Shown here: positions 4,650 through 63,896 of the stretch, one piece after another
Layout of the letters: each line of letters starts with the position of its first letter
Numbering within the stretch: position 1 is the stretch's first letter
DNA from: an uncultured Gammaproteobacteria bacterium
Lineage (GTDB): Bacteria > Patescibacteriota > Patescibacteriia > 2-12-FULL-60-25
NCBI GenBank assembly: GCA_964415965.1
Contig: CAYQCK010000003.1
Coordinates: 3,426 to 67,425, forward strand
DNA: 64,000 nucleotides
Reading direction: 5' to 3'
The notes under the pieces: model-generated
What the model saw: only the letters and a program-made list of their open reading frames with translations
What the model was told of the DNA's origin: nothing
Database searches by the model: none
Made by a program: the position numbers and the translations under genes

Positions 4650-6515
4650 TCACATCTCCTCCGGCACCGGGATGCCGAGGAGGTCCAAGCCCAATATCAT
4701 GACGGAGGCCGCCGAAGCCACGAGCTGGAGGCGCGCCTGCTTCACGCCGAAAGGCGCCTCCAGGACCTTCACGTCGCGATAGAATTCGTTGGCCGCCGTT
4801 GCTGCGGCCAGGCACCACTGGGCCAAACCCGACGGGTCGAGTTCCGCGCCCGCGGCTTTGACTGCCGCCGGGAAATCCGCGAGCTGGATGGCCAGCTTCT
4901 TTTCGGCCGGTTCGGTCAGCTGGAGCCTGTCCCCCGCCTCGACCCCCGTCTCCGGTTTCCAGTCCGCCTTGCGCAGGATGGATTTGAGCCGCGTCACGGC
5001 GTACTGCACATACGGACCCGTGTCGCCGTCGAACGACAGGGATTTCTCGAGGTCGAAAGTGATTATCTTCTCGCTGTCCTGCCGGAGCATCCCGAACTTG
5101 AGTCCGCCCATGGCCAAGCACCAGGCCACATGCTCGACTTTGCCGTCCGGCCAATCCTCATGGCGCTTGCGCGTCTCGCCCCTGGCGTACCCGACGACCT
5201 CATCCCGGAAGCTTCCGTAAGTCACGACATTGCCCTCGCGGCTCGACATCGCGCCGCTCTTGAGCGTCAGGAATTCGTAGCCGACATACTCCAGAGGCTT
5301 CTTGACCCCCATCAGCTCCAATGTCCGGAAGAGCTGTTTGAAATACAGCGACTGCCGGAAATCGACCACGTGCAGGCTGCGCTCGAGCTTGGGGTATTCC
5401 TCGAATTTGAGCTTCGCCAGCGCCAGGTCCTTGGTCGCGTAGAGCGAAGTGCCGTCAGATTTCCGCACCAGGAAGACACCCAGCTTCTCCTGCTCCAGGT
5501 CGACGACGATAGCTCCCTGGCTCGGTCGGGCGATGCCGTTCTTCAGGAGTTCGTCCACGATGCGCTGGCCCGCGTCCACCACCTCGCTCTCGAAATACGG
5601 TCGGTCGATAGCCACGCCCAGTTCCTGGAACACCTGCGTCATTTCGGCCACGGACCAACGGCGCGTCTCCTGCCAAATCCTCATCCACCCCGGCTTTTTG
5701 GCCTCCAGATCCAGCTGCACTTGCGACACTTGGGTCTTCCAATCCGGGTTCTCCTCCAAGAGCTTGCTGGCTTCGGCGTACAGCTGCCCGAGATACTGGC
5801 CGGTGCGCCGGTCTTTCGGGATGGACGAAAGCATCGCGTCAGCCATGGCTTCATCCAAATCCGCCAGGACGTGCGCCGTCCACTGCTCGGCATCCATGCC
5901 CGGCTCTTCCGGCTCGCCTTTCTTGGCCTTCTGCGGTTTCGGTTGGGCCACGGCGCCCGAATGGGTGCGCGCCAAAAGCCACAGGCACTTGGCCACATGC
6001 GCGCCTACGTCGCCGTGGTAACTCGCGGACACGACTTTCCAGCCGTTGGCCTGCAGCGCCTTGGCCAGGGATACCCCGAGGACCAGGTTGCGCAGATGCC
6101 CGACGTGGATTTCCTTGTGCGTGTTCGGCTGGGCGTATTCGACCATGACCTGGCGGCCTTGGCCTTCGTCGGTGGCGCCGTATCTGCCCGCGTGATGTTC
6201 GATTTCCTGGACGATGCGCGACACGAAATCACCCGTCTTCAAGGTGACGTTGAGATACGGACCGGTCGCGCTGACGCTCTCGATGGTATGGTCGCCCTCC
6301 CCGAGCTTGCCCGCGATGTCCTTGGCGACGTCTGCCGGGCTTTTGCCGAGCTGCTTCGAGGCCTTGAAACAGCCGAAAGCCATGTCGCCAAGCTTCGCGT
6401 CCGGCGGTTTGCCGAGATCCTCGATGCCGACCTCGACCTTCAGCGCCTCGGTCGACAGGGCTTCGGAGATTTTCCGCGCGACGTGCAGTTTTATCGCTTC
6501 CCAGGTATAGGTCAT
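4650..6515 (-). CDS. argS: arginyl-tRNA synthetase
   Basis: 621 aa. Class I HIGH-like motif (PNTHKEIHVGHLRN), ArgRS N-terminal additional domain and C-terminal DALR-like anticodon-binding domain. Confidence 0.95.
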   Translation of the reverse strand: MTYTWEAIKLHVARKISEALSTEALKVEVGIEDLGKPPDAKLGDMAFGCFKASKQLGKSPADVAKDIAGKLGEGDHTIESVSATGPYLNVTLKTGDFVSRIVQEIEHHAGRYGATDEGQGRQVMVEYAQPNTHKEIHVGHLRNLVLGVSLAKALQANGWKVVSASYHGDVGAHVAKCLWLLARTHSGAVAQPKPQKAKKGEPEEPGMDAEQWTAHVLADLDEAMADAMLSSIPKDRRTGQYLGQLYAEASKLLEENPDWKTQVSQVQLDLEAKKPGWMRIWQETRRWSVAEMTQVFQELGVAIDRPYFESEVVDAGQRIVDELLKNGIARPSQGAIVVDLEQEKLGVFLVRKSDGTSLYATKDLALAKLKFEEYPKLERSLHVVDFRQSLYFKQLFRTLELMGVKKPLEYVGYEFLTLKSGAMSSREGNVVTYGSFRDEVVGYARGETRKRHEDWPDGKVEHVAWCLAMGGLKFGMLRQDSEKIITFDLEKSLSFDGDTGPYVQYAVTRLKSILRKADWKPETGVEAGDRLQLTEPAEKKLAIQLADFPAAVKAAGAELDPSGLAQWCLAAATAANEFYRDVKVLEAPFGVKQARLQLVASAASVMILGLDLLGIPVPEEM

Positions 6516-19663: not shown

Positions 19664-20497
19664 ATGAGAAAAACCTTCTTATCTTTCGGCCTCGCGCTGA
19701 CCGTCTGCGCGGCCGCCGGCTCGGCTTTGGCCGCGCCCCTGCCCCTTTTACCGGGCAAGACCATCCCTAAGTTACCCACCGCTACCGTCGAACCGATAAC
19801 GGTTCCGGTCAAGGGAGTCGAAGTGACCATCGACCCCTCCCTCTTGCCCGACCTTTCGACCGCCACCACTTCCGGTGGTCCGGTCCAAATCGACCCGGAC
19901 AAGCTTGGCCTGCTCAAACCGTTGCCGCTCGGCGACTTCGTCATCCCGCCAGAGCTCCTGAAAGGACCGCAGATTTCGGCCATCGCGCTCTCGACCGACG
20001 GCAAGCTCCTGCAGGTCTCGTGGACGACGGACAAATCCGCAACCAGCAAGGTCGAATATGGCTCCAATGACACATATGGCAAACTGCTCGAAGACAAGAC
20101 CAAGGCGACCCAGCACAGCCTGCTGATCCCGGTCGCTCCCGGTGAGCTGCACCTGCGCATCTCGTCGAGCGATGCCCTGGGCAAGACCTCCCAATCCGAA
20201 GACATCGCCGTCACCGTCCCGGACATGACGACAGTCGCCCCCGGAACCGCGACCACGACCGATGCCGCCGTGACCACGACCGAGGAAGAAAAGACCGAGG
20301 TCAAAGAGGAGGATACGGCCAAACCCGAAGACAAGCCTTCGGTCAAAGTCGAGCCACCCATGGTCCAGGTCCAAACCGGCCCCTCGACCATGACCCTGGT
20401 CGGCGGTGCCGTCGCCCTCATAATCATCGGCGTATTGGTCGGCGCACTCATCGGCCGCGGGAAGAAAACGTCGGAACCCAAGACAGAACAAAAATAA
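19664..20497 (+). CDS. secreted Fn3-like protein with signal peptide and C-terminal TM anchor
   Basis: Signal peptide MRKTFLSFGLALTVCAAAGSALAAP. Fn3-like block (ISAIALSTDGKLLQVSWTTDKSATSKVEYGSNDTYG). Thr/Glu-rich linker, then C-terminal TM (LVGGAVALIIIGVLVGALIG) followed by a basic tail. Confidence 0.6.
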   Translation: MRKTFLSFGLALTVCAAAGSALAAPLPLLPGKTIPKLPTATVEPITVPVKGVEVTIDPSLLPDLSTATTSGGPVQIDPDKLGLLKPLPLGDFVIPPELLKGPQISAIALSTDGKLLQVSWTTDKSATSKVEYGSNDTYGKLLEDKTKATQHSLLIPVAPGELHLRISSSDALGKTSQSEDIAVTVPDMTTVAPGTATTTDAAVTTTEEEKTEVKEEDTAKPEDKPSVKVEPPMVQVQTGPSTMTLVGGAVALIIIGVLVGALIGRGKKTSEPKTEQK

Positions 20498-27489: not shown

Positions 27490-29417
<1,928 letters not shown>

Positions 29418-29468: not shown

Positions 29469-29498
29469 GAAGTAGCATTCGACTGAATCGAGTGCTAA
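29469..29498 (-). promoter_or_regulatory. CIRCE-like HrcA operator upstream of groES
   Basis: The reverse strand reads TTAGCACTC-gattcagtc-GAATGCTAC, against the CIRCE consensus TTAGCACTC-N9-GAGTGCTAA. It lies about 55-80 nt upstream of the groES ATG. Confidence 0.55.
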
Positions 29499-29611
29499 TC
29501 CGACAGTGGTCTAAATATGCCAAATCCCGATGAAGTGCGTCAAGAGCCTAACATGCTGACGGGGATTGGCCTAACCCGCCCGGGTATCGACGCTTTGTCT
29601 TTTGGACCCGT

Positions 29612-39315: not shown

Positions 39316-42300
39316 CTACTGCGTCACGCCCAGCTGGAGCGAGCCCTTGAACACGGTCCACGGCCGGAAGCTCTTGACCTTGTCCGCGGACTTGGGATAC
39401 GGGTCGCACATGTTCCTGGTCCGCGGGACGCTCGAGACGTACAGGTCCTGTTTGGAATCGCGGTTGAGCGTCTCGCCGGTGGCGTCGTAGCAGCCGCCGT
39501 ACGGCAGGAGGATGTTGTTCACGCCGGCGAAGCCCATCCCCAATTTGCCGTTCCCCAAGTCCTCGGCGCGGCATTCGCCCGAGCACCAGCCCCAGGCGTC
39601 CTTGATGATGACGCGCGGCGTGAAGCGGCAAGCGTTGTTGGTCTCGTCGAAACAGCCTCCCGGGGGCGCGATGCCGGCCACGCACTTGTCGCCCGGCGCG
39701 CAATCCGTCTTCTCGGTCGCCACGGTGCACTTCTGGGTGTTGTCGCGGTTGCAGTACATCTGGTCGCCGCAGGCCGCCGGTTTCTTGTCCTTGAGGCACT
39801 GGTAGACGTGGGTGTACTCGAAGTAGTTCTGCTCGCAGGCCCGGTCGCTGTTGCCGAAGGTCAGGCGGGGTTGGCACTTGTCGCCCACGTCCAGGCCGCC
39901 CTCGAAGCAATCCTTGTCCTCCACGCACTGGACCGACGGCTTGCTGGCGCAGTAGCTCGTGCTGACGCATTTTCCTCCGGCCGGCGGGCAGTCGTTGTTC
40001 GAGTTGCAGGTGAGTCCGGGCACGAACTCGCACTCCTTGGTCGACCCGCAGATCGGCTTCTTGTTCTTCATCCGGCTGTCATGGAACTCCTGGCTGGTGC
40101 CGTCGCCCCAATCGACCCAGATGTCCTTGATGCCCATCTGGTTGTCGGCCGCCCAGCCGTAGAACTGGATGGTGTTGACCGACTGTCCGCCGATGTACGC
40201 GACCTTGCCTTCGGCCATGCCGTCCAGGGCGAACGTCCCGACCTGCGATATCGGGCACTGTCCGGCCGACGGGCACTGGCGGGTCGTATCCGGCGCCGCC
40301 ATGGTCGGCGGCCGCGGGGCATAATAGGACATGTAGCCGTAGTTAGCCTCGTAAGGCGCCGGATCCTTCTTGTTCTTGTCCGCGATGTACGGCGGCATGT
40401 GCAGGCCGCTGCTCACGTCGGTCGGCGGCAGCCACATCTTCAGGTTGTACGACTCCTCCCCGGACTTCGGCGCCGGGACATTGCCCATGGTCCCCTGGTT
40501 GTTGTAGTCGCGCTGGGTGATGGCGGTCAGGCAGACGGCCTTGTTGAGGTCGTACCCGCACAGGTCGGCCCGGGGATAATAACCCGTGCCGTGGGTACAG
40601 GAGTTGTTGTCCTCGTCCGGGTTGGTCGCGGTCGGCGAACCCTGGTTGTTCTTGGTGGTGCAGTCGTAGTAGGGCGAGTTCGATTTCATCGGGTTGCCGT
40701 TGCCGTCAGACACCGGTTGGCAGAAATTGCTGTCATCACCGGTCACCCACAGCGGCTTGCAGGTGCTGGTCGAGGCGCAGAACATCCCGTCGAACACGCC
40801 GCCTTCGCACAAGCCGGGAGCCATGTCATCCGGACCGCTCCAGCGTATGGCCGTCGATGAGTGGTCGAAATACGGAACGTCGTGGGAGAAGCCGCCGCTG
40901 CAACCAGTTGTATCGCCTCCGAGCTTCGTGAATTCGCCGCACCTCGAAGAAGGCACCGGCAACCTCTCGCAATGCCCCGGAATCACCAACCTTACCCAAG
41001 GCGCTGACGCCGGGAAGGTGTAACCGGAATAGGGTTTGGACACTTGTCTGACGTTCACTACTCCCGGGAATCGTTTGATCGCATCTCCCGGATTTGAGTT
41101 AAGGTCGTACATGAAGTACCGGGTCCCATCCAAGGTATTTCCACCGATGTCTTTCCGCAACGTTTGGCCGTCAGTACCGAACCAACCGTCGGTTGAGTTT
41201 GACGTCCACCAGGGCACGGTTGCGGTATCGAATGACGCTTCAACCGATACGCCGACGCCCCGATACTGCTCCTTGCCGCAACTAGGCGAACCGGGACCGC
41301 ACGGATCATTGATGGGATAGTTGTAGTTCTGAGTGTCCAGATATGCGGGCCAGCTCATCTTCCATCCCGGGGTATGCGGCGTCTGGCCTTTGGACTTGGT
41401 CACCCAGGCATGGTTCTTGGGGAAAGGCATGGCCTTGTTCGGCTGGCCGCCGGCCTTGGCCGAATCCCAGAACCACCAGGTCTGCCACCAGAATGTACAA
41501 TCATAATCCTCATTGCACTGGGCGTTATCATACCCGTTGGTGCACCGATGGGTTGTCTTGTCGCAGACCGAATAACCAGCGCCCTTAGCCGATGGACCGA
41601 CTTCCAGCGGGCAGTCCAAGGACGGCATCCCTTCGCTCGGCTGGCGGCACCAGCCGTTGGTGCCGTCCGGGAACTTGACGCCGGCGTCGGCGCACTTGAA
41701 CGCGCCGGCCTTGGCCGCGGTCTTGCGCTGGACGAACTTCACGTTGCCTTGGGTGCAGCCCGGGATGCCGGCTTCGTTGCAGTCCGCCAGGGCGACCGCA
41801 TCGGTGCCGCTGTAGGCATAGCCGCTGACCGAACCGTCGTCGCCTTTGACTTCGGACCAGCCCGGCGCCAGGTCGCACGGCACGTACTGCGCCTTGAATT
41901 CCCCGTTCACCAGCCTGACCGGAGCCGCGTGGCAGACGTGATAGCCCTCGAGCGTCAGCGAGGCGCTGCACGGCAACCCGGCGTTCACGCCCGAAAGCGC
42001 GTTGCAGAACGCCGAATCGTCGTTGACCACGTCGTACAGCGTCGGGTTGCAGGTGCCGGTGTATCCGCAATATTTCTGGGACAGCGAGGCTTTGGTCGAG
42101 GCGACCAATTCATTCCAGTTTTTCTGCTGCGCGGGCGTCATCGGCTCGGCCGGCTTCGTGATCTTCGAACCGAACTTGGTGTACAGGACGGTCGCGTCGT
42201 CGACCAAGGTCTTGAGGTTGGGGCAGCGCGAACCGTAGTTCGGCCCGGCGATGCAGGCCCACGAGTTCTTGCCGACCGGCATGTCGTGGTACTGGTAGAC

Positions 42301-45300
42301 ATTGTAGATCTTGGCGAAGATGTCGTTGAGATAAGCCCAGTTGCCGAGCGGCATCATGGCCGTCTTGGCGTAGTTCGAACCGCTCGCCAGGAAGGTCGGA
42401 CGGACGCCGGACAGCTTGAACGTGGCTTTGCCGGACAGCGGACCCATCTGGTAGAGGGGATCCTTGCCGATGGCCTTGGTGTGCTTGGCCGCCCCGAACG
42501 GCGGGTTGAGCGTATCGTAGGTGAAACCCAAAGTCGGGATGGAGTACGCCCCGCCGTCCCAAATGCGGTCAGTGAAGGCGGCTGTCTCGTGGGTCGTCGG
42601 CGAGCTCGTGCGCGCCACCTGCTTGCAGATGTCGGCATGGTTCACGTCCAGGTACATGTACATGTAGCGCTCGGTCGTCGCTCCGGGATAGGATGCCGTC
42701 ACCCACCAGCCCACGAAGCGGAACGGGCCGCCCAACTGGGTACCCGACGGATCCATCTTGTTCTCCGGCACCCGGTTATCCTCCGGCGAGGCGTCCTCGA
42801 ACATCGCCCGGATGGCGAAGAACGGCTTCGACGACTCGGATTCGGCGAACATGACGTCGGCCGGGTCGAGTTTGCGCGGCCCGCCCACCGAATCGTCGAA
42901 CGTCCGGAATTTCTTCTGGCCATCGGCGCGCAAGCCCGTCTCCCAATACTTGTAATAGCACAAGGCGTCGCCTTCGCTGTCGTCGCCGTTCTCCGGATAC
43001 TTGCACGGCAGCCTGGCGAGCTTGGTGCCTTTTTCGTTCTTCAAGTAGCCGAAGTTCTCCGAGGTCAACGGCTTGAACTCGGCCATGACGCGGTTTATCA
43101 GGGTCGCGGCCGCGCTGTCCCAGCCCGCGCCGCTCTGATCGACCTTGAACTCGTCGACCCACCAGCCGGATTCGCCGCACGCCCAAGTGCCGCCGACGCC
43201 CGTCTTATACATCGGGTTGAAAACGAAGCTCGTGAAGTTCTGCTCCAGCGCCGCCTTCGCCGTCTTCGGGTCGGTCGAGGTGGCGATCTTGATGTCGTTG
43301 TACAGCCATTGGGCCCACGCGACATCATTGAATTCGATGAAATACTCAGAATAATTGCGGCCCAAACCGCGGCCCGTGGTTATCCAGCGGCCGGCGCGGA
43401 TATCGTTGGCCACGTCGCCGCCGGCATAGGCCATGCGGACGCCGGCGCAATTCGATCCGCTCTCGCCGCCATTGGCCCGCACCCCATCCAAGGTGGCTCC
43501 CAAACCGCAATGAGCCTCGTACCAATCGTCGTCACTGTTCCATGAATCATAACCCCACGGCATGGGATGGTCGTTCACGACGTCCGTGTCGATGACGTAG
43601 CACTCGTGGTAATCGAAGTGGGTGATCTTGCCCGGAGGCGTCTTGACCAACATGGACTTCAGGTCGCCCTCCGGCGGAGTTTTGCATTTGATACCGTCCT
43701 CGCTCGTACGAATGGGATACATCTTCCATTCGCAGATATTGTGGTTGGCCTGCGTCTTCATGGTCCGCGGTTCCCGCGATTTGGACAGGCAGTAGTATTC
43801 GCCGGAGCTGGCGGGCGGCAGATAGCTGGCCGTCGGTTCGTAGTGGTAGCGGTCCTGCTGGCCGGCCAAGACCGGGGCCGGGTTCCAGACCAAGCACGGG
43901 TTCCGGTCCAACGCGCCGCCCAATTTGCGGCTGTAGTCGCGCTGCAGGCACTGGCCGATGACGCCGCGGACAAAGGTGTCCTTGTCCAAAGGCGAACAGG
44001 AACCGGAACGGCACCCGGCCGGCACGATATCCGAACCGGAGATCTTCGACGGGGCGACCGCGGCATCCTGGCCAGCGATGGCCTGCGCCAAGGCGGCGTT
44101 CTGCGAAGCCTGGTCTGCCTGGCCCTGCTTCTTGGCCTGCTCGGCCGCCGCATCCGGATCGCAAGCCTTGCCTGCATCCAATCCGCCGACACAGATGCCT
44201 AGCGGCGCCGTGCCAGCGAAGGCCGAGTAGTACTTCTTCTTGGCTCCATACGACACCTTGCGGTACGAGCAATCGCAATCCTCTCCGTATTCGCAGAATT
44301 CGACCGAATCGTAGCCGTCCAGGAACGTCTTCGGCAACGGCGGATCGACCGTCAAATCCCAATCCTTGATGAATTTGTTGGCGAACGGGGAAGTCGCTTC
44401 GGGATGCGCCCGGCACTCGACGGGCGGATAATGGCGGTTCAGGTTGTTGTCCGTGGCCAGCGACGCGCTCTGTTCGAAGGTCGTCGAGATCTTTTGGGCA
44501 TTGCCGGGCAGTCCCAGGAACTGGCCCAACGCCTCGTTCAGGACGGTCGTGTAGGGCTTCTCGATCGGCAGATAGCAATTCGGCGTCGGTTCGTCCTTGA
44601 TCTTGTAGCCGATCATCCCGGTCTGCGCATGCTTGCACAGGTTGAGGTACGGATAGGCCGTATCCTTGAAATCCACGGCGAACCAGGGTTCGGTGCACGC
44701 AGCTTTGCCGTCGATGCAATCCTGGTTGGTGGCCATCGGCACGGCCGCCACCAGCCGGAACTCGTTGTACAGGGCGTCGCGCTGTTTGCCCGGCCGCATG
44801 AGTTCATACGCCACCCGGCGCATCTGCAGGTCGGACACCTGGAAATGGTTGGGGATGGTGTAGCCCGTGTAGTCGATCGAACCGAAACCCGTGATCCGCT
44901 TGATGTACGAACCGATGTCCGTGAACCGGCCCTGGGCCAGCTGGCTGGTCGGGTCTGACTTGCGGTCCACGTAATGGCCGCAGAAATTCTTGCTGGCCGC
45001 GCCGCCCGCCTGGTCACAGGCCGAGAGGTTGGTGCACAGGTCGATGTACTTCTGCTGGGACGGGTCATAGACCGTCTCGGCCGACGAGCAGCCGAGCCAG
45101 GTCTGGCAATCGCGGTCGAGCTTCACCTTGAGGATGAGGTTGGAGTCGTTGGGACGCGTGCATTTGCCTTGGTATTCCCAGGTGCCGCCCCCGACAGGAC
45201 GCTCGAAAGAGCAATCGTTATCGGTTTTACAGGAGACGTTCTGGTATGCCAGCAGGCCCGGGACGGTTGCGCTCTGGATTTCGATCGGGGCGAATATCCC

Positions 45301-48300
45301 TCCGCCCTGTTGTGTTTTCGGTCGGGCCTTTTGTTCGACGCAGCGCCCGGCATTGACGCAATGTTCGTTGGTCGGGTCGTTCTCGCAGTTGATGGTGCCC
45401 ACCGCCACATCGCCGTCGGCATGACTCTTGGCGTAGGTCGCCGTCGAATTGAACGTCAGCGAGCTGTCGTTCATGTCGCGGAACAGCACGCAGCCCGAGA
45501 GCGGATCCACCTTGCCCTTGCACGATGCCTTGTCCAAGGCCTCGTTGGCGATGAAGAAATACGGTTTGCCTTGCGGATGGGCCTGGTCGCTCTTGTCGCT
45601 CGGGTCGCGGTATTCGGTGCACTCCGACTGCTCGCTCGGGCACAGGTTGACCCAGCCGCGGTAATTCGGGGCGGCCGTGAACTCGGTCAGGAAACTGCTG
45701 CCGCCGGCCTGCTTTTCCGGATAGCACGGTACCGGCGGTTCGGCGCCTTTGACGAACCAGCCCGAATACTCACCTTCCGGATAAGCCGGATTGGCGGACG
45801 CCTTAACCTTCACCTTATCCTTCCATTCGCAGACATGGTCGCGCGGGTCGCGGAAATACGAGGTGACCGGTCCGCTCACGAATTTGTCGCACAACAGCTC
45901 GCTCGGCCGGCACAGCATGTCCGGCTCTCCCCCGCCGTCCACGTATTTCTTGATGTCGTCCTTGAGGTAGACCGTCTCGTAGGTCGAACTCGGGACGCCG
46001 AAGGCGTCGAACGTCGGTTTGCCGAAGGCGCGGCAAGACGCGGCGGTCGCGGCGCAGCGCGTGCTCGGTTCGTCGATGGCGTAGAGGTAGCGGTCGGCCG
46101 GCCGGGTGACGGTCAAGGTGCCGGCGTACAGTTTGTCCCACTGCTTGGTCAGGGTGTTCTGGTCGTAACCCGCCAGCTTGAAGTCGTCGGCATAGGCGCT
46201 GTCCGAATTCCGCGTATCGATGAACGCCGCGCACCCGACCGACTCGTAGCGGCACAACCGGCTGAACTGGCGCAGGTCCACCTTCTTGCCGTTCCGGTCG
46301 CGGTATTCGCGGCAGCCCAACATGGCCTGCGGCAGCGGCACGCCCTCCGGGGTCTGGTCGCATTCGGCCGGGACGGTCCAGGAATCCTTGTTGACGTACA
46401 CCACATCCTGCAGGCGCTGGACGGTTATCTCGTCGAAATAGCTCGGCGACGGCAGGTTGCCGAACGTCAGGGTCTGGTTCGGGCTCCCCATGGCGCGGAA
46501 CGGCCCGAGCTCATAGCGCTTCCAATCGGTGCCGGCCTTGAAACCGCCGGCCGGATTGCCGCCCAAGCTGACAGTCACGTTCTTGCCCGTATTGTCCAGT
46601 GATTTGTACCAGAAGCTGACCGAATACAGGGTATTGGTCGTGGCCGGGAACGTGACATTGAAAGTCGCCGCCGCCACCGCCGACTGGTATTTGAGCGAGT
46701 AGTCGCCGACCATCAGCGCTTCGGGCGAGAAACCGAACGTCGTGCCTTGGCCCGTGACCGAGAACGCGTTTGAGCTGGTGGCGTTGGCGAACGTCTCCTT
46801 CAGGACGACGGTCGTATTGCGGCCGGTCGTGCCCAGGTAGCCGCGGCAGCCGGCATTGACCGCGTCGCACTGGGCGCTTTCGGCCAAGAGCACGCTGTAG
46901 AGGCAGTCGCCGGTCTCGGAGCGGTAGCTGCCGCCGGTCTTGGTGCAGTCGTCGGTGTTGGAATTGTTCTTGCGGTAATCGCGGCAGTCGGCCGACGACA
47001 CCACGGTCTTAGAATAATACGAGTAGAACGCCTTGCCCTGTTCGTCGTAGAACTGGCGGCAGTCCGCATCGGCTTTCGCACCCCAATTGTCGGCGTTGCA
47101 GTCGGCGGAGTTCTTGAGGATGCCGTCAGGTCCGGCTTTCTCGATGTTCAGCGGCGCGTAATGCGGCGTCGGATCGTTGGGGTCGACCGGGGTCGGGTTC
47201 TTGATGAGGCTCCAGGTCTTGAGTTGGTAGCCGGTCGTGTCCGAACCTTCCCAGGTGAAGTACGTCTGGGAATTAGCGTTCGGTTTTTGGCAGGCGCGGG
47301 CATAGGTCAGGTAAGCCACTTCCTCGCCGCCCAAAGCCGCCGCCTCGACGTTCGTCATCCCCTCGCATCCGGCTTGGGCCGCGTTGCAGGCCTGCGCCTG
47401 CTTCGGGATGAAGACGGCCTTGGTGTCGTCCTTCGGGTCATCGAGCGGATCCGCGGACGGCACCGGCGCACCCGTGTTGACCAGGTCGAAGGCCGACGGC
47501 AGTTTCTGGTATTCGGCGTAACCGACGCATGAGTTCGGGCAATAATCGGTCTGCGACAGGATGGCCGGCACTTCGGTCGTGTCGCCCGCCCCGACTTCCG
47601 TATATCCTTGGCAGCCGGCATCGGCCTGGAGGCACATCTTGGCGTAGCCGTCGCACTCCTTGCGGTCGAGCTTGCTGTCGCCGGTGCAATTGAATTCCTC
47701 CGGCGGAAGCTTGATGTGCAACGACGGCAATCCCGGGTTGTTGCCGTCCAGGAAATCGGTCGGGGCGAAACCTTCTTCGAGCTGGACCGCGTCGATGGCC
47801 GCGTTCGTGCCGGCCACCGCAATCTTCGCCGTTTGCGCGTCCTTGTTCGTCAGGAACTCGCAGGTGAAGCGCGTCCAATCGGCGGTCAACCCTCCGGCGC
47901 CGACGTTGGCGCGGGTCTGGGCCGCCCCTCCGGGCGCCCCGACGATCGTCGAATTGCAGTTCGGGCTGCGGTAATAGTTCGTGCCCGCCGCGACATCGGT
48001 CCCCGCCGCATTCAACAAAACCGCGGTCACTGAAGCTATCCCGGCCGGACCGTTGCCGCGGGCATAGAAGGACAGCACGTAATTCCTCAAAGGCTTGACC
48101 TTGACCCTCTGGACCAGCGGCACGACCACCGCGCCGAACGCCTGGCTGCGGCTGCCTTCGAAAGATACATCGCCGTCCTGCGTATCCAGCGCTTTGACTA
48201 CAGCCGGAGCTGACGGGTTCGCGCTATCGGACCAGCCGTCATAATAACCGTCCTGGTTCTTCAGCGTGTCCTCGAACGAACCGTTACGCACCAGGTTCAG

Positions 48301-50454
48301 GGCATTCTGGCTCGGCTGGACGCGCAGTACCTTGGTGCAGCCGTCGCCCGACGCGTCGCATTTCTCGACCTTGGAGTCGAAGTAGACGCGCGGCATCGTG
48401 CCGAGGGTCACGGATTTCTTGTCGGTCGTGGCAGTATTGAGCCATTTCAGGGTCGAGGTCACGGACATGTCGTATTGCGCGGAGTAGAACATGCAGCCGA
48501 CATTGTCCTGGTTGCAGGCGCCGTAATCCACGGAATTGCGCACGTACGACACCTCCGCGCCCTTCTGGTAACCGTCGCTCCGCGATTTGTAGGTCCGGCA
48601 GCTGACGAATTTCTCGTCGCAAGCGTCGGCGCCGAAACGCCAGACCGTCTTCTCGGCCAAGCAGTACCCGTAACCGCCGGTGCAGACGCCCTTGTCGTCG
48701 CGCTTGAGGCACGAGACCGGATCCGCGCATTCCTGCAGGCGGGCGCTCGTGCCTTGGACCATCAAGGTATCGCTGTAGCCTTTCAGCTGGCACTTGAACG
48801 GCGGCGCCGTCAGCACCCAGGCCGGGTCGATCAGGTGGCACCACGGATGCTCGGCATCGAGCTTATTGTCCTTGTTGCAGTCGTTGTAGCCGCGGATGAC
48901 CGTCCCGAGGGTCACGTACTTGCCGCTGTTCTTGATGTTGAACGGGGAATTCGCCGCCAACTCCCAGCCGATGGGCAGGATGCGGGCGAACCGCAACTTG
49001 GCCAGGTTGGAGGCGCAATAGGCGCGCTGATAGCAACCCGGATCCTGGTCGTTCTTGACGTCCGTCGCCGGGATGAGCTCCCAGTCCTTGTGCAGGAATG
49101 CGGCCGGCGCGGCGCCGCCCAGGCCGGCCGCGCGGGACACGGTGTAGGCGCCTTCCGTGGTCGCGTTCTTCACGGCCGAGACCATGCCGTCGTCCATGGT
49201 GCAATGCCAATAACCGCGGTTGTCCGGACAGATCGCCATCTCGGACACGATATCCAGCATGTCCATGGTCACCATGTTCGGCGAGATGATGTCGGTGAAG
49301 GCCTTGGCCCGCGCTTTCTTCGGTTCGGCCGCCTTTTCGGCGTACGGGTTCGTCAGATCCATCTGGTAGTTGGTGTCGTCGCTCGAATCCTCGCCCATCA
49401 GGAAAGCCAAAAGCTTCTGGAGCGCGCCGGTCGCCAAGGTCGAGAGGAAAGCCATGCCGGCCACGACAGGCAGCTGCTCGATGGTGGCCCACATGGCCTG
49501 CAGGGCCATGTTGTTGACCTGGGCGATGGTCATGTCCTTCACCAAGCCGGCTTGGTTGTTCTGCGCGATGGTCTCTTGGATGACGACGGCCGGCGTCTTG
49601 ATTTCAGGGTTGAGAGGGCCACGTTTGACCGTCTTCAGGCCCTTGGTCTCTTGGCGGTCGAGTTCGGCCGCTTTCTGTTCTTCGGACTTGCCGACCAGGT
49701 ACATGCTGTTGACGCGCAAGTTGAAGTCGAAATCGTTGCCGCCGACATCCACGCTCCTGACCATGGCCACGGCGATATCCCGGGGCTTGAGCTGGCGGTA
49801 CATGTTCTCGAAATTCTCCTTGACTCCCTGGAACGTACAATCCGGCCCCGGGACCTTGGCGACCGAGCCGATGCCGAGCGCCAGCTTCATGCCGAAGTTC
49901 GGCTGGGTACACAACCCCAGGCCCCACTGTTTGTCCAACTGGTCGATGAACCGGTTGGTGAATTCCATGCCCAGGTTCTTGACCATGCCCCCGAATCCCT
50001 GGCGCCAAAAAGCCGGCTGGCCGTGCATGCCCTCAAGCACCCACTGGGCCGTCTGCTGGCCGATGGTGATGGCGAAATTGAACAGTACGTCGGACAATGC
50101 CCTGACCACGACCATCTGGAGATAGCCTCCGACTTTCGCGACCTGGCCCTTAAGGACCTCGAAATACTGGCAATCTGGAGCCATTTCTTGCCCAAACACC
50201 CAACTGGATATGCCTCCATACATCCCAGGCATCGATCTAGCCTGCCAATCATACGAACTGCAGACCGGAGTCTCCATCGCGACCTGGGCGATCGCACTGT
50301 AGTCCTCGTCCGCGGCCTTGGCTTCCGGGACCGCTGCGGCCAGCGATGCCGTGACCAGCGAAAGCATGGCCAGCATCATCGAGCCTTTCGCCAACAGGCG
50401 GTAGCATTTTTTCAGGACAGCGGGCATAGCGTTTTTAGGGGTATATTTCGGCAC
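39316..50454 (-). CDS. giant (3712 aa) cysteine-rich secreted or surface protein
   Basis: Single uninterrupted 11.1-kb ORF. N-terminal signal/anchor (SMMLAMLSLVTASLAAAVPEAKA). Well over 100 Cys spread throughout and Gly/Asp/Asn/Thr-rich. No internal stops and the composition is not Arg-rich. Confidence 0.85.
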   Translation of the reverse strand: MPKYTPKNAMPAVLKKCYRLLAKGSMMLAMLSLVTASLAAAVPEAKAADEDYSAIAQVAMETPVCSSYDWQARSMPGMYGGISSWVFGQEMAPDCQYFEVLKGQVAKVGGYLQMVVVRALSDVLFNFAITIGQQTAQWVLEGMHGQPAFWRQGFGGMVKNLGMEFTNRFIDQLDKQWGLGLCTQPNFGMKLALGIGSVAKVPGPDCTFQGVKENFENMYRQLKPRDIAVAMVRSVDVGGNDFDFNLRVNSMYLVGKSEEQKAAELDRQETKGLKTVKRGPLNPEIKTPAVVIQETIAQNNQAGLVKDMTIAQVNNMALQAMWATIEQLPVVAGMAFLSTLATGALQKLLAFLMGEDSSDDTNYQMDLTNPYAEKAAEPKKARAKAFTDIISPNMVTMDMLDIVSEMAICPDNRGYWHCTMDDGMVSAVKNATTEGAYTVSRAAGLGGAAPAAFLHKDWELIPATDVKNDQDPGCYQRAYCASNLAKLRFARILPIGWELAANSPFNIKNSGKYVTLGTVIRGYNDCNKDNKLDAEHPWCHLIDPAWVLTAPPFKCQLKGYSDTLMVQGTSARLQECADPVSCLKRDDKGVCTGGYGYCLAEKTVWRFGADACDEKFVSCRTYKSRSDGYQKGAEVSYVRNSVDYGACNQDNVGCMFYSAQYDMSVTSTLKWLNTATTDKKSVTLGTMPRVYFDSKVEKCDASGDGCTKVLRVQPSQNALNLVRNGSFEDTLKNQDGYYDGWSDSANPSAPAVVKALDTQDGDVSFEGSRSQAFGAVVVPLVQRVKVKPLRNYVLSFYARGNGPAGIASVTAVLLNAAGTDVAAGTNYYRSPNCNSTIVGAPGGAAQTRANVGAGGLTADWTRFTCEFLTNKDAQTAKIAVAGTNAAIDAVQLEEGFAPTDFLDGNNPGLPSLHIKLPPEEFNCTGDSKLDRKECDGYAKMCLQADAGCQGYTEVGAGDTTEVPAILSQTDYCPNSCVGYAEYQKLPSAFDLVNTGAPVPSADPLDDPKDDTKAVFIPKQAQACNAAQAGCEGMTNVEAAALGGEEVAYLTYARACQKPNANSQTYFTWEGSDTTGYQLKTWSLIKNPTPVDPNDPTPHYAPLNIEKAGPDGILKNSADCNADNWGAKADADCRQFYDEQGKAFYSYYSKTVVSSADCRDYRKNNSNTDDCTKTGGSYRSETGDCLYSVLLAESAQCDAVNAGCRGYLGTTGRNTTVVLKETFANATSSNAFSVTGQGTTFGFSPEALMVGDYSLKYQSAVAAATFNVTFPATTNTLYSVSFWYKSLDNTGKNVTVSLGGNPAGGFKAGTDWKRYELGPFRAMGSPNQTLTFGNLPSPSYFDEITVQRLQDVVYVNKDSWTVPAECDQTPEGVPLPQAMLGCREYRDRNGKKVDLRQFSRLCRYESVGCAAFIDTRNSDSAYADDFKLAGYDQNTLTKQWDKLYAGTLTVTRPADRYLYAIDEPSTRCAATAASCRAFGKPTFDAFGVPSSTYETVYLKDDIKKYVDGGGEPDMLCRPSELLCDKFVSGPVTSYFRDPRDHVCEWKDKVKVKASANPAYPEGEYSGWFVKGAEPPVPCYPEKQAGGSSFLTEFTAAPNYRGWVNLCPSEQSECTEYRDPSDKSDQAHPQGKPYFFIANEALDKASCKGKVDPLSGCVLFRDMNDSSLTFNSTATYAKSHADGDVAVGTINCENDPTNEHCVNAGRCVEQKARPKTQQGGGIFAPIEIQSATVPGLLAYQNVSCKTDNDCSFERPVGGGTWEYQGKCTRPNDSNLILKVKLDRDCQTWLGCSSAETVYDPSQQKYIDLCTNLSACDQAGGAASKNFCGHYVDRKSDPTSQLAQGRFTDIGSYIKRITGFGSIDYTGYTIPNHFQVSDLQMRRVAYELMRPGKQRDALYNEFRLVAAVPMATNQDCIDGKAACTEPWFAVDFKDTAYPYLNLCKHAQTGMIGYKIKDEPTPNCYLPIEKPYTTVLNEALGQFLGLPGNAQKISTTFEQSASLATDNNLNRHYPPVECRAHPEATSPFANKFIKDWDLTVDPPLPKTFLDGYDSVEFCEYGEDCDCSYRKVSYGAKKKYYSAFAGTAPLGICVGGLDAGKACDPDAAAEQAKKQGQADQASQNAALAQAIAGQDAAVAPSKISGSDIVPAGCRSGSCSPLDKDTFVRGVIGQCLQRDYSRKLGGALDRNPCLVWNPAPVLAGQQDRYHYEPTASYLPPASSGEYYCLSKSREPRTMKTQANHNICEWKMYPIRTSEDGIKCKTPPEGDLKSMLVKTPPGKITHFDYHECYVIDTDVVNDHPMPWGYDSWNSDDDWYEAHCGLGATLDGVRANGGESGSNCAGVRMAYAGGDVANDIRAGRWITTGRGLGRNYSEYFIEFNDVAWAQWLYNDIKIATSTDPKTAKAALEQNFTSFVFNPMYKTGVGGTWACGESGWWVDEFKVDQSGAGWDSAAATLINRVMAEFKPLTSENFGYLKNEKGTKLARLPCKYPENGDDSEGDALCYYKYWETGLRADGQKKFRTFDDSVGGPRKLDPADVMFAESESSKPFFAIRAMFEDASPEDNRVPENKMDPSGTQLGGPFRFVGWWVTASYPGATTERYMYMYLDVNHADICKQVARTSSPTTHETAAFTDRIWDGGAYSIPTLGFTYDTLNPPFGAAKHTKAIGKDPLYQMGPLSGKATFKLSGVRPTFLASGSNYAKTAMMPLGNWAYLNDIFAKIYNVYQYHDMPVGKNSWACIAGPNYGSRCPNLKTLVDDATVLYTKFGSKITKPAEPMTPAQQKNWNELVASTKASLSQKYCGYTGTCNPTLYDVVNDDSAFCNALSGVNAGLPCSASLTLEGYHVCHAAPVRLVNGEFKAQYVPCDLAPGWSEVKGDDGSVSGYAYSGTDAVALADCNEAGIPGCTQGNVKFVQRKTAAKAGAFKCADAGVKFPDGTNGWCRQPSEGMPSLDCPLEVGPSAKGAGYSVCDKTTHRCTNGYDNAQCNEDYDCTFWWQTWWFWDSAKAGGQPNKAMPFPKNHAWVTKSKGQTPHTPGWKMSWPAYLDTQNYNYPINDPCGPGSPSCGKEQYRGVGVSVEASFDTATVPWWTSNSTDGWFGTDGQTLRKDIGGNTLDGTRYFMYDLNSNPGDAIKRFPGVVNVRQVSKPYSGYTFPASAPWVRLVIPGHCERLPVPSSRCGEFTKLGGDTTGCSGGFSHDVPYFDHSSTAIRWSGPDDMAPGLCEGGVFDGMFCASTSTCKPLWVTGDDSNFCQPVSDGNGNPMKSNSPYYDCTTKNNQGSPTATNPDEDNNSCTHGTGYYPRADLCGYDLNKAVCLTAITQRDYNNQGTMGNVPAPKSGEESYNLKMWLPPTDVSSGLHMPPYIADKNKKDPAPYEANYGYMSYYAPRPPTMAAPDTTRQCPSAGQCPISQVGTFALDGMAEGKVAYIGGQSVNTIQFYGWAADNQMGIKDIWVDWGDGTSQEFHDSRMKNKKPICGSTKECEFVPGLTCNSNNDCPPAGGKCVSTSYCASKPSVQCVEDKDCFEGGLDVGDKCQPRLTFGNSDRACEQNYFEYTHVYQCLKDKKPAACGDQMYCNRDNTQKCTVATEKTDCAPGDKCVAGIAPPGGCFDETNNACRFTPRVIIKDAWGWCSGECRAEDLGNGKLGMGFAGVNNILLPYGGCYDATGETLNRDSKQDLYVSSVPRTRNMCDPYPKSADKVKSFRPWTVFKGSLQLGVTQ

Positions 50455-51646: not shown

Positions 51647-52018
51647 TCATTCCCCCTCCCACTCTATCGCAATCTTCTGCCCATGCTCACGCACCGGAAT
51701 GCGGATTTCGAGCACGCCGTTCTTGAGCGTGGACTGGGCCGAATCCGTCGCCACCTCGTACGGCAGGACGATCGAACGGCTGAAAGCGCCCCAAAAACAT
51801 TCACGATAGAACCAATCGTCCTCCGGGACTTCCTTGATCATCGAGCGGTGGCCGCGGATGGTAAGCAGGTCGCCATGGATGGAGATGTCCAGATCCTCCG
51901 GCCGCACCCCGGCGACCGTCGATCGGATGACGAGCTCATCGCCATCGCGGAAAACATCGACCGACAGCTGCCCCTCGTTCGAAGGAGCCATCCAATCATT
52001 CGCCGGAAGGATTTGCAT
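51647..52018 (-). CDS. Hsp20/alpha-crystallin small heat-shock protein
   Basis: Alpha-crystallin domain (VDVFRDGDELVIRSTVAGVRPEDLDISIHGDLLTIRG...LPYEVATDSAQSTLKNGVLEIRIP). Start at MQILPANDW. The ORF-track extension to 52105 would encode the palindromic repeats. Confidence 0.85.
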   Translation of the reverse strand: MQILPANDWMAPSNEGQLSVDVFRDGDELVIRSTVAGVRPEDLDISIHGDLLTIRGHRSMIKEVPEDDWFYRECFWGAFSRSIVLPYEVATDSAQSTLKNGVLEIRIPVREHGQKIAIEWEGE

Positions 52019-52059
52019 ACGGCGGAAGTATACCAGAGATTCCGGCATCCCGGCCAAAC

Positions 52060-52262
52060 GCCAGAACTCCGGAGACCCCGGGTCGATGCCCGGGGAATCA
52101 AACACGATAGCTCGAATTCCATTTTTTCTGACATCCCGGCCAAGCGAGGCCGCCGAGCGCGAGCCGGGATCTCTGAACGGAGACCCCGGGTCTCGGCGCT
52201 GCCTCGCCCGGGGTGTCGATAATTACGTCGGCAACCGAAACCCCGGGTCGATGCCCGGGGTG
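52060..52262. repeat. GC-rich palindromic intergenic repeat cluster, locus 2
   Basis: Three copies of (g)aCCCCGGGtcgatgCCCGGGG-like hairpins, plus the ~75-bp TGACATCCCGGCcaagcgaggccgccgagcgcgaGCCGGGATctctg unit shared with 35955-36080. Confidence 0.5.
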
Positions 52263-62253: not shown

Positions 62254-62715
62254 ATGCTATCTTTCACCCATATGCTGAGAGATCCCTTCGCCCGTCCGGC
62301 CACCGAGGCCGCGCCCGAGACCTCGGTCGAAAGCGCGAAAACCAAGTTGGCCGAGAAAAAAATCGGATTGCTCGAGAAGCTCAAGGCCTCCCCTTACGCT
62401 TTCGCCCTGACGGCCCTCATGTCCATCAACAGCCAGACCGGTTGCACACCGTTCCGGGAGCTGCCTCCGATGGCCGCCGACGTCGGCAAGAGCCAGCACG
62501 AAGTCCACATGCGGCAAGACCGCTGCAACATCGGACGGCGCCAGGCGAAAGAGATCTTCAAGCATACGGGCCGGACGCCCCAAATCCGCGAATACGCGGC
62601 CGAAGCCTACCTGAAATTCAACGCCTGCTACGAAGGGCTGGCCCACAACGTCTGGGACGAAAAGACTTACCAGGAAGCCGAACTGGCGCTGGCTGCCGCC
62701 CAGAAGAAATATTGA
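62254..62715 (+). CDS. hypothetical protein
   Basis: 153 aa with balanced composition. The overlapping alternative frame is Arg-rich. Confidence 0.45.
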   Translation: MLSFTHMLRDPFARPATEAAPETSVESAKTKLAEKKIGLLEKLKASPYAFALTALMSINSQTGCTPFRELPPMAADVGKSQHEVHMRQDRCNIGRRQAKEIFKHTGRTPQIREYAAEAYLKFNACYEGLAHNVWDEKTYQEAELALAAAQKKY

Positions 62716-62728
62716 ACCCGGATATTTG

Positions 62729-62755
62729 TTAGCACTCTACACTTTTGACTGCTAA
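62729..62755 (+). promoter_or_regulatory. CIRCE-like HrcA operator upstream of clpP
   Basis: TTAGCACTC-tacactttt-GACTGCTAA, a 17/18 match to the CIRCE consensus, 52 nt upstream of the clpP ATG. Confidence 0.6.
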
Positions 62756-62807
62756 TACGGGATAGGTTATGCTGTGGGGGCGCGGCTGTCCGCGCCACAA
62801 TAAACAT

Positions 62808-63422
62808 ATGAATCCACTCGAAATCCGCTCGCAAACAGCGAATTCTTGGCTCGTGCCGACTGTCATCGAAAAGTCGACCAATGGCGAACGCGCCTACGAC
62901 ATCTACTCCCGCCTGCTCAAGGACCGCATCATCATGCTCGGCTCGCCCATCGACGACGACATCGCCAACATCGTCATCGCCCAGATGCTGTTCCTCGAAA
63001 GCCAGGACAAGACCAAAGACATCAAGCTTTACATCAACTCCCCCGGCGGGAGCGTCACCTCGGGCCTCGCCATCTACGACACCATGCAGCACGTGGCCTG
63101 CGACGTCTCGACCATCTGCGTCGGCATGGCCGCCTCGATGGGCGCGGTCCTGCTCGCCGGTGGCGCCAAAGGCAAGCGCCTCGCCCTGCCCAACGCCGAG
63201 ATCATGATCCACCAGCCGCTGGGCGGCATCGAGGGCCAAGCCACGGACATCAAGATTCGCGCCGAGCGCATGCTCAAGGTCAAGGACCAGCTCAACCGCA
63301 TCCTGGCCAAGCACACGGGCCAAGCCATCAAGCAGCTCGAGACCGACACGGACCGCGACAATTTCATGGACCCGAAAGAAGCCCTGGCCTACGGGCTGAT
63401 AGACAAAGTCCTCGGGAAATGA
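62808..63422 (+). CDS. clpP: ATP-dependent Clp protease proteolytic subunit
   Basis: Catalytic triad context ([14 protein letters not shown]; MIHQP; D in [10 protein letters not shown]). 204 aa. Confidence 0.95.
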
Positions 63423-63470
63423 CCCCCCGACAAAAAACATCCCGGCGACCACCGGGATGTTTTTGTAGAA

Positions 63471-63896
63471 TCACTCGCTTTGAATCAACGACTTGGTGAT
63501 GTATTCCAGGTCCTTCTGGAAATCTTCGGTACGTTCAAAATAAGGCAGCCCAGCCTCGGCGCAGGCGGGCTTGAGCCAACGGCTGAAATCAGCGGCGAAG
63601 GCCGCGACCTGGCGCATAACCTCGGTGTCGCTGTCGCGCAGCCAATCGTCAGGGCTCGTATTTTTGGCCATCCCGTCCATGATTTGGGCGACATCCTCCG
63701 AACCGACGAACAACGCCCGGACCGTGCCGGACTGGGAATGGTCCATGATGTCCTTGGCGAATTCCGGCAGCACTTGGACGCCCTCGAGCACAAAATCCTT
63801 CCCGGCTGTCACTGCTTCTGCGATGAGCCGCCGGAACTCGGGTTCCATGGACTTGGCTTCGATGAGCTGGAGCCGGGTAAGCTCCGCGGGCGGCAA
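63471..63896 (-). CDS. hypothetical protein; the reading frame stays open to the window end and may start outside it
   Basis: 141-aa ORF from MPPAELTRLQ. Upstream codons to position 64000 are in frame without a stop. Confidence 0.4.
   Translation of the reverse strand: MPPAELTRLQLIEAKSMEPEFRRLIAEAVTAGKDFVLEGVQVLPEFAKDIMDHSQSGTVRALFVGSEDVAQIMDGMAKNTSPDDWLRDSDTEVMRQVAAFAADFSRWLKPACAEAGLPYFERTEDFQKDLEYITKSLIQSE

Follow-up and report, generated by a model that had tools for sequence, protein, structure and literature searches.

A predicted CIRCE operator at clpP, conserved across a Patescibacteria clade near Candidatus Uhrbacteria

The DNA upstream of clpP in an uncultured member of the CPR/Patescibacteria raises the question of whether a switch associated with chaperones controls a protease as well. 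Positions 62729-62755 of the 64-kb stretch analyzed here, which we call the window, hold an inverted repeat of the CIRCE type, the predicted operator of the heat-shock repressor HrcA. A pattern search and a comparison of relatives suggest that the chaperone switch probably does control a protease, ClpP, here too. Almost nothing is known of gene regulation in CPR/Patescibacteria, and the clpP operator would provide a concrete regulatory link, in which one sensor of unfolded proteins sets the levels of both protease and chaperonin in uncultured, genome-reduced bacteria.

The window was searched for the CIRCE consensus, TTAGCACTC-N9-GAGTGCTAA, with up to three mismatches allowed, and exactly two sites matched. 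The site at clpP, which reads TTAGCACTCTACACTTTTGACTGCTAA in full, is composed of a left arm TTAGCACTC (62729-62737), a spacer TACACTTTT of exactly 9 nt, and a right arm GACTGCTAA (62747-62755). It agrees with the consensus at 17 of 18 positions and is separated from the clpP ATG at 62808 by 52 nt. The other site lies on the minus strand at 29472-29498, in the canonical position at groES-groEL, and reads TTAGCACTC-GATTCAGTC-GAATGCTAC; it has two mismatches (16/18) and a distance of 54 nt to the groES ATG. About 0.01 such sites per window are expected by chance, two or more matches occurred in 0 of 100 shuffles, and the third-ranked CIRCE-like site in the 64-kb window has six mismatches, placing the clpP and groES sites well clear of the background. 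A sequence-only reading of the same DNA had described a near-perfect, 17/18 CIRCE 52 nt upstream of clpP and a second repeat upstream of groES, and had proposed the search with three mismatches. The first description is accurate throughout, with one mismatch and a true clpP as the ORF; the second repeat is present, though it starts at 29472 rather than 29469; and the search, run over the window, matched these two sites alone.

The gene that follows the first site (62808-63422, plus strand) encodes the 204-aa proteolytic subunit of the ATP-dependent Clp protease. The ORF scores 318.4 bits against TIGR00493, for which the curated equivalog cut-off is 308.6, and the translation shows a 13-residue motif and TDRDNFM, the Ser-His-Asp triad having been assigned to motifs by eye. 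An ORF upstream (62254-62715) ends 14 nt before the CIRCE and leaves an intergenic region of 92 nt before clpP. On the other side of clpP, a strong hairpin preceded by an A-run and followed by a T-run (63430-63466, plus strand; fold -20.5 kcal/mol, z = -6.07) sits between clpP and a convergent gene at 63471-63896 on the minus strand. This hairpin is likely a bidirectional terminator, and since it parts clpP from its convergent neighbor, clpP looks monocistronic. A simple terminator scan of 62300-63600 missed the hairpin though its stated criteria seem to describe it, a possible false negative.

A promoter scan predicts a -35 hexamer TTGACT at 62745-62750, overlapping the CIRCE right arm, and a -10 hexamer TATGCT at 62768-62773, 17 nt further along the plus strand. 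At clpP as at groES, the promoter hexamers are consensus matches only, the promoters of CPR not having been characterized. The single mismatch in the clpP CIRCE is a G-to-C change in the right arm (GAGTGCTAA to GACTGCTAA), which disrupts the palindrome and turns TTGAGT into the near-consensus TTGACT. A right arm that doubles as the -35 accounts for this mismatch, which would then be a compromise between operator and promoter.

The predicted promoter also bears on where ClpP begins. JGI calls the orthologues at 204 aa, and the ClpP N-terminus aligns with that of L082 (relatives are given by the L numbers of their loci). The NCBI call (P0001) is 217 aa long and begins at an ATG at 62769, within the -10 hexamer TATGCT. 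The L162 counterpart of this ATG is not in frame and L164 has none, which argues that TATGCT belongs to the promoter and does not mark the start of translation; the NCBI start is, by this comparison, probably mis-annotated. Comparing the promoters of relatives thus fixes the start codon of clpP. A GC-rich hairpin in the predicted clpP leader (62779-62796, GGCGCGG-CUGU-CCGCGCC; -14.5 kcal/mol, z = -2.06) is part of an insertion of about 26 nt seen in the window only. Relatives have 8-12 nt from the -10 to the ATG, a spacing that suggests leaderless or nearly leaderless clpP mRNAs in most of them.

Operators of other clpP regulators were also sought. Tandem CtsR heptads (RGTCAAA-NAN-RGTCAAA) were not found near clpP in a search of the window; the two matches elsewhere in it, at 234 and 23463, have three mismatches each, with 2.6 expected by chance, and control of the CtsR type seen in Firmicutes is not supported. 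By inspection, the 92-nt intergenic region has no CCCCAT-like -10 properly spaced from the TTGAAC at 62712, as a sigma-32 promoter (CTTGAAA-N13-15-CCCCAT) would have.

The groES-groEL operon, the canonical HrcA target, occupies 27490-29417 on the minus strand (groES 29127-29417, groEL 27490-29118; NCBIfam matches to both). A promoter with a TG extension, TTGACG-18-CATATT, is predicted on the same strand at 29514-29543. The groES CIRCE begins 16 nt downstream of the predicted -10, and so would lie within the transcribed leader, the classical arrangement in B. subtilis. Contigs of the same species from other samples have this site without any change. An exact look-up of GroES returned same-species strains only, with 0-3 differences per 150 nt, and contigs from several further samples encode an identical GroES or GroEL, among them a 29-kb JGI contig inside the window (GroEL). 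No CIRCE was found at hsp20 (51647-52105, minus strand; PF00011), either in the window, as the sequence-only reading had noted, or in relatives. Two GC-rich palindromic units (CACCCCGGG...N...ACCCGGGGT(T/C)TC(G/C)GTT) lie at about 52130-52260, between a VanW-like gene and hsp20; judging from their sequence, they may form an operator of another kind or belong to a repetitive hairpin element.

In its sequence, the clpP site thus has all the features by which a CIRCE is recognized. Arms of 9 bp flank a spacer of exactly 9 nt at both sites; both sites fall within or directly downstream of a sigma-70-type promoter, the promoters being consensus predictions; and a groESL CIRCE is present in the same genome, indeed in the same window.

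We assign the window, which has a GC content of 62%, to a Patescibacteria (CPR) genome near Candidatus Uhrbacteria, a member of the Parcubacteria group of the Patescibacteria. At NCBI, homologues of ClpP that share 80-100% identity go under the names "Patescibacteria group bacterium" or "Candidatus Uhrbacteria bacterium". Several of the "binchicken" TPA MAGs among the loci (L002-L007, L009 and L039) are titled "uncultured Gammaproteobacteria bacterium"; their ClpP and their DHH-clpP gene order group with Patescibacteria, and the titles look like mislabels. The window contains many small genes without a Pfam match. Its complete 16S rRNA gene (17735-19240, minus strand; 1443.6 bits) has no adjoining 23S or 5S gene, which indicates an unlinked rRNA operon. 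An 861-aa ORF (30708-33293, minus strand) starts with the "shoulder" domain of the Major Vault Protein (PF11978, 44 bits), after which comes a long coiled-coil-like tail rich in Ala, Glu and Lys. The gene has an equal Pfam match in the same-species contigs L172-L174; such a vault domain is unexpected in a CPR bacterium. Relatives have orthologues (3573-3822 aa) of a giant 3712-aa ORF (39316-50454, minus strand) in the corresponding place; the most that these show is a faint CBM_4_9 match, and the ORF probably encodes a cell-surface protein.

Each of the eight other distinct relatives sampled from the clade (47-59% GC) has a CIRCE with three or fewer mismatches immediately before clpP; they span 71-94% ClpP identity to the window and, with the window included, 47-62% GC. 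A scan of species-representative genomes and metagenomes yielded, among the matches listed, relatives of no more than 78% identity, and 3 of about 12 had the site; the closer relatives (81-94% ClpP identity) came from a search of a large protein database, after which their contigs were fetched. The arms are unchanged, TTAGCACTC-N9-GACTGCTAA, in L162/L163 (94% ClpP identity; 1.29-Mb contig), L164 (86%; 1.36 Mb) and L165/L166 (85%; Ca. Uhrbacteria, GCA_016222815.1). The spacers of these loci and of the window differ while the arms remain constant, and L162-L166 are syntenic with the window, in the order DHH, Nudix, hypothetical, clpP. L167-L169 (82%) carry TTAGCACTT-N9-GAGTGCTAA within a 44-nt gap between DHH and clpP, and in L170/L171 (81%) the site is TTAGCACTC-N9-GACTGCCAA and ends 4 nt before the ATG. 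The contig of L082 (78%) starts inside the site and shows the right arm, ...TTGACTGCTAA, followed 17 nt on by TACATT. The most distant carriers (71-72%) are L006, with CTAGCACTC-N9-GACTGCTAA and two mismatches, and L005, with TTTGCACTC-N9-GTCTGCTAA and three. Part of the 410-nt DHH-clpP gap of L170 (9590-10000) looks like the T-arm of a tRNA (GGGTTCGATCCCCGG); since ARAGORN does not recognize a tRNA in the gap, this part may be a remnant of one.

We aligned nine distinct clpP upstream regions. The invariant columns upstream of the ATG number six in each arm and include no others, whereas the mean column identity is 51%. By an analytic estimate that takes base frequencies as equal, a site with at most three mismatches arises by chance at about 5e-5 per 150-nt region, so that its presence in nine of nine clpP regions is not due to chance. 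On a ClpP tree (neighbor-joining, a single protein, and hence of low resolution) the carriers, each with at most three mismatches, form one clade plus the adjacent pair L005/L006, while at 22 other loci on the tree the best CIRCE match has at least seven mismatches. Within 400 nt upstream of clpP at the approximately 130 remaining loci, mostly from Firmicutes and other CPR, there was no site with up to three mismatches (first 80 loci) or up to four (metagenome loci). In a neighboring clade (L002, L003 and L085) clpP directly follows the DHH gene and has no CIRCE, indicating that CIRCE control of clpP is not indispensable. The sequence-only reading had made its case depend on conservation of the clpP repeat in relatives, and the repeat is conserved in eight other distinct ones, its arms alone being invariant.

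In every carrier the clpP CIRCE overlaps hexamers resembling a core promoter, and it does so in three registers. In register A (the window, L162, L164, L165 and L082) the right arm supplies the -35, and TTGACT followed after 17 nt by a -10-like hexamer (TATGCT, TATAGT or TACATT) is kept in L162, L164, L165 and L082. In register B (L170/L171 and L006) the right arm holds a -10-like TAGACT, with TTGTCT or TTGACC 17-18 nt upstream. In register C (L167-L169) a -35-like TTGCAA is found where the left arm meets the spacer, and TATACT comes just after the right arm. L164-L166 have an intrinsic terminator (GCCCATC...GATGGGC and a T-run) directly upstream of the CIRCE, which means that clpP there must have its own promoter at the operator. 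The clpP CIRCE is a clear natural case of an operator that stays fixed while the promoter overlapping it shifts register.

Overlap of this kind could mean that the conserved sequence is merely the clpP promoter, and that it resembles CIRCE by coincidence, or as a decayed relic without repressor function. The right arm does overlap a good -35 with a -10 at 17 nt, and the single mismatch improves that -35. However, the left arm, TTAGCACTC, lies outside any hexamer in register A and is invariant in five lineages nonetheless, and L167-L171 and L006 change register while keeping both arms and their 9-nt spacing. A promoter by itself fails to explain either observation, and a relic would not keep 16-17 of 18 positions over 71-94% ClpP identity and a 15-point range in GC; we consider this account extremely improbable. 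The repeat might instead act in RNA, as a stem-loop that terminates or stabilizes either the upstream gene's transcript or a clpP mRNA produced by read-through. Its position 14 nt past the stop codon of ORF 62254-62715 would suit such a role, and the groES CIRCE is predicted to lie in a transcribed leader, but no T-run follows the clpP repeat, and L164-L166 possess a true terminator distinct from the repeat, immediately before it. Moreover, the arms do not covary but are invariant, no second change offsets the C-C mismatch that the conserved G-to-C substitution creates in the putative stem, and most of the repeat would be untranscribed if the TTGACT promoter is used. The probability that we allow for a role in RNA is very low.

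A different possibility is that the site is a true operator, but for some regulator that is not HrcA, as it might be if the lineage had lost hrcA or used a paralogous winged-helix protein. The hrcA gene was not found in the window by Pfam, tblastn or a two-sequence HMM, nor in the 2.33 Mb of fetched loci (171 loci) by tblastn and the HMM, and the literature searched yielded no earlier report of HrcA in CPR/Patescibacteria. The tblastn query, a B. subtilis HrcA sequence, is a valid probe, since it hits the T. maritima HrcA of solved structure, 1STZ, at 4.6e-28. Linkage of hrcA to clpP is not expected. Against another binding protein stands the sequence itself, canonical for CIRCE in having arms and spacer of 9 nt each, and we know of no protein besides HrcA that recognizes CIRCE. 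The co-occurring CIRCE at groES, a universal HrcA target (PMC545781), likewise argues against it, and we rate this alternative very unlikely. A cognate binding protein is implied both by the canonical groES CIRCE of the window and by the purifying selection that has acted on the CIRCE at clpP. The altered right arm is plausibly compatible with HrcA binding, since its reverse complement, TTAGCAG, occurs as a half-site in the groESL CIRCE of S. thermophilus (PMC3192767).

We regard it as likely, from the arrangement of the sequence and its conservation, that 62729-62755 is a functional CIRCE operator at which bound HrcA would block RNA polymerase at a dedicated clpP promoter. In the mechanism we propose, the HrcA that also controls groES-groEL would bind the clpP CIRCE and occlude the promoter, the right arm being its -35. 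By analogy with the GroE-titration model (Mogk et al. 1997, as cited in PMC7053576 and PMC7737663), GroEL/ES would keep HrcA active; when unfolded proteins occupy GroEL, HrcA would be released, and chaperonin and ClpP protease would be induced together. HrcA binding, repression and heat induction, and an hrcA gene elsewhere in the genome, are what we infer.

Clp genes appear as CIRCE neighbors in another CPR group as well. In L008 (Ca. Peregrinibacteria RIFOXYA2_FULL_41_18) a CIRCE variant, CTGGCACTC-N9-GAGTGCCAA, lies at 19829-19855 between TTGACA and TATACT. The ORF downstream of it, from 19895, has a zinc-finger-like N-terminus and two Clp_N domains and is a ClpB/ClpC-type ATPase, cut by the end of the locus. 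This arrangement suggests that Clp genes are recurrent HrcA targets in CPR. A further CIRCE, with two mismatches, TTGGCACTC-N9-GAGTGCCAA, was seen in L013 (Ca. Peregrinibacteria GW2011_GWA2_33_10) at 5138-5164, between divergent genes; an ATP-grasp gene that is RimK-like by sequence similarity lies about 250 nt downstream of it.

A broader proposal, which we offer tentatively and hold to be somewhat short of an even chance, is that HrcA is the main, possibly the only, regulator of proteostasis in a clade of Patescibacteria around Ca. Uhrbacteria. Titration of GroEL would then couple ClpP proteolysis to chaperonin load, a Clp ATPase would be controlled likewise in Peregrinibacteria, and the operator would have been kept while the promoter was rebuilt three times. 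If true, no regulon would have been reconstructed for CPR bacteria before this one, which would also parallel the convergent simplification seen in mycoplasmas.

How far these findings depart from known systems can be judged by comparison. The reference case is CIRCE/HrcA control of groESL and dnaK in Bacillus subtilis (Zuber & Schumann 1994, as cited in PMC3192767 and PMC6305308). The window shares with it the 9-N9-9 repeat consensus, the placement at a sigma-70-type promoter and the groES-groEL target. It differs in that the target here is clpP, which in B. subtilis belongs to a separate CtsR regulon (PMC6305308), and in that the clpP operator overlaps the -35, whereas the B. subtilis operator lies downstream of the transcription start. 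Among delta-proteobacteria, sigma-32 governs clpP, and HrcA has no constant target but groESL (PMC545781).

Closer precedents exist. Streptococcus salivarius clpP is under both CtsR and HrcA (Chastanet & Msadek 2003, J Bacteriol 185:683, as cited in PMC3842655 and PMC6305308). As those citing papers present the system, it resembles ours in having a CIRCE at clpP and in that HrcA links the chaperone and Clp protease regulons; it differs in belonging to a Firmicute in which CtsR acts as well, whereas the clpP of the window has no tandem CtsR heptads. The clpP CIRCE described here is, in addition, conserved throughout a CPR clade. In Lactobacillus gasseri, clpL is a probable member of the HrcA regulon (Suokko 2008, as cited in PMC3192767 and PMC3231925). 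In the account given by the citing papers, this is likewise a Clp-family gene recruited to the HrcA regulon, and it parallels the CIRCE at the Clp_N gene of L008; clpL, however, is an ATPase gene of Firmicutes, whereas the gene here encodes the proteolytic subunit. In Mycoplasma pneumoniae, lon is under a CIRCE element (PMC7737663). There too a reduced genome has an HrcA/CIRCE regulon that takes in ATP-dependent proteases besides chaperones, though the protease (lon) and the phylum are different. In M. genitalium clpB is also under CIRCE, and to our knowledge mycoplasmas have no ClpP.

Control of clpP, lon and clpL by HrcA is documented in Firmicutes and Mollicutes, and the mechanism is therefore not new. 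The sequence-only reading had taken the clpP repeat as a sign of an expanded HrcA regulon that joins proteolysis to chaperone control in this lineage. The expansion to clpP is supported by conservation across the clade in which only the arms are invariant; its novelty was somewhat overstated, given S. salivarius clpP and M. pneumoniae lon. What the comparison leaves standing is a well-supported regulatory prediction, clade-wide, for a poorly understood group of bacteria: a CIRCE at clpP in the CPR.
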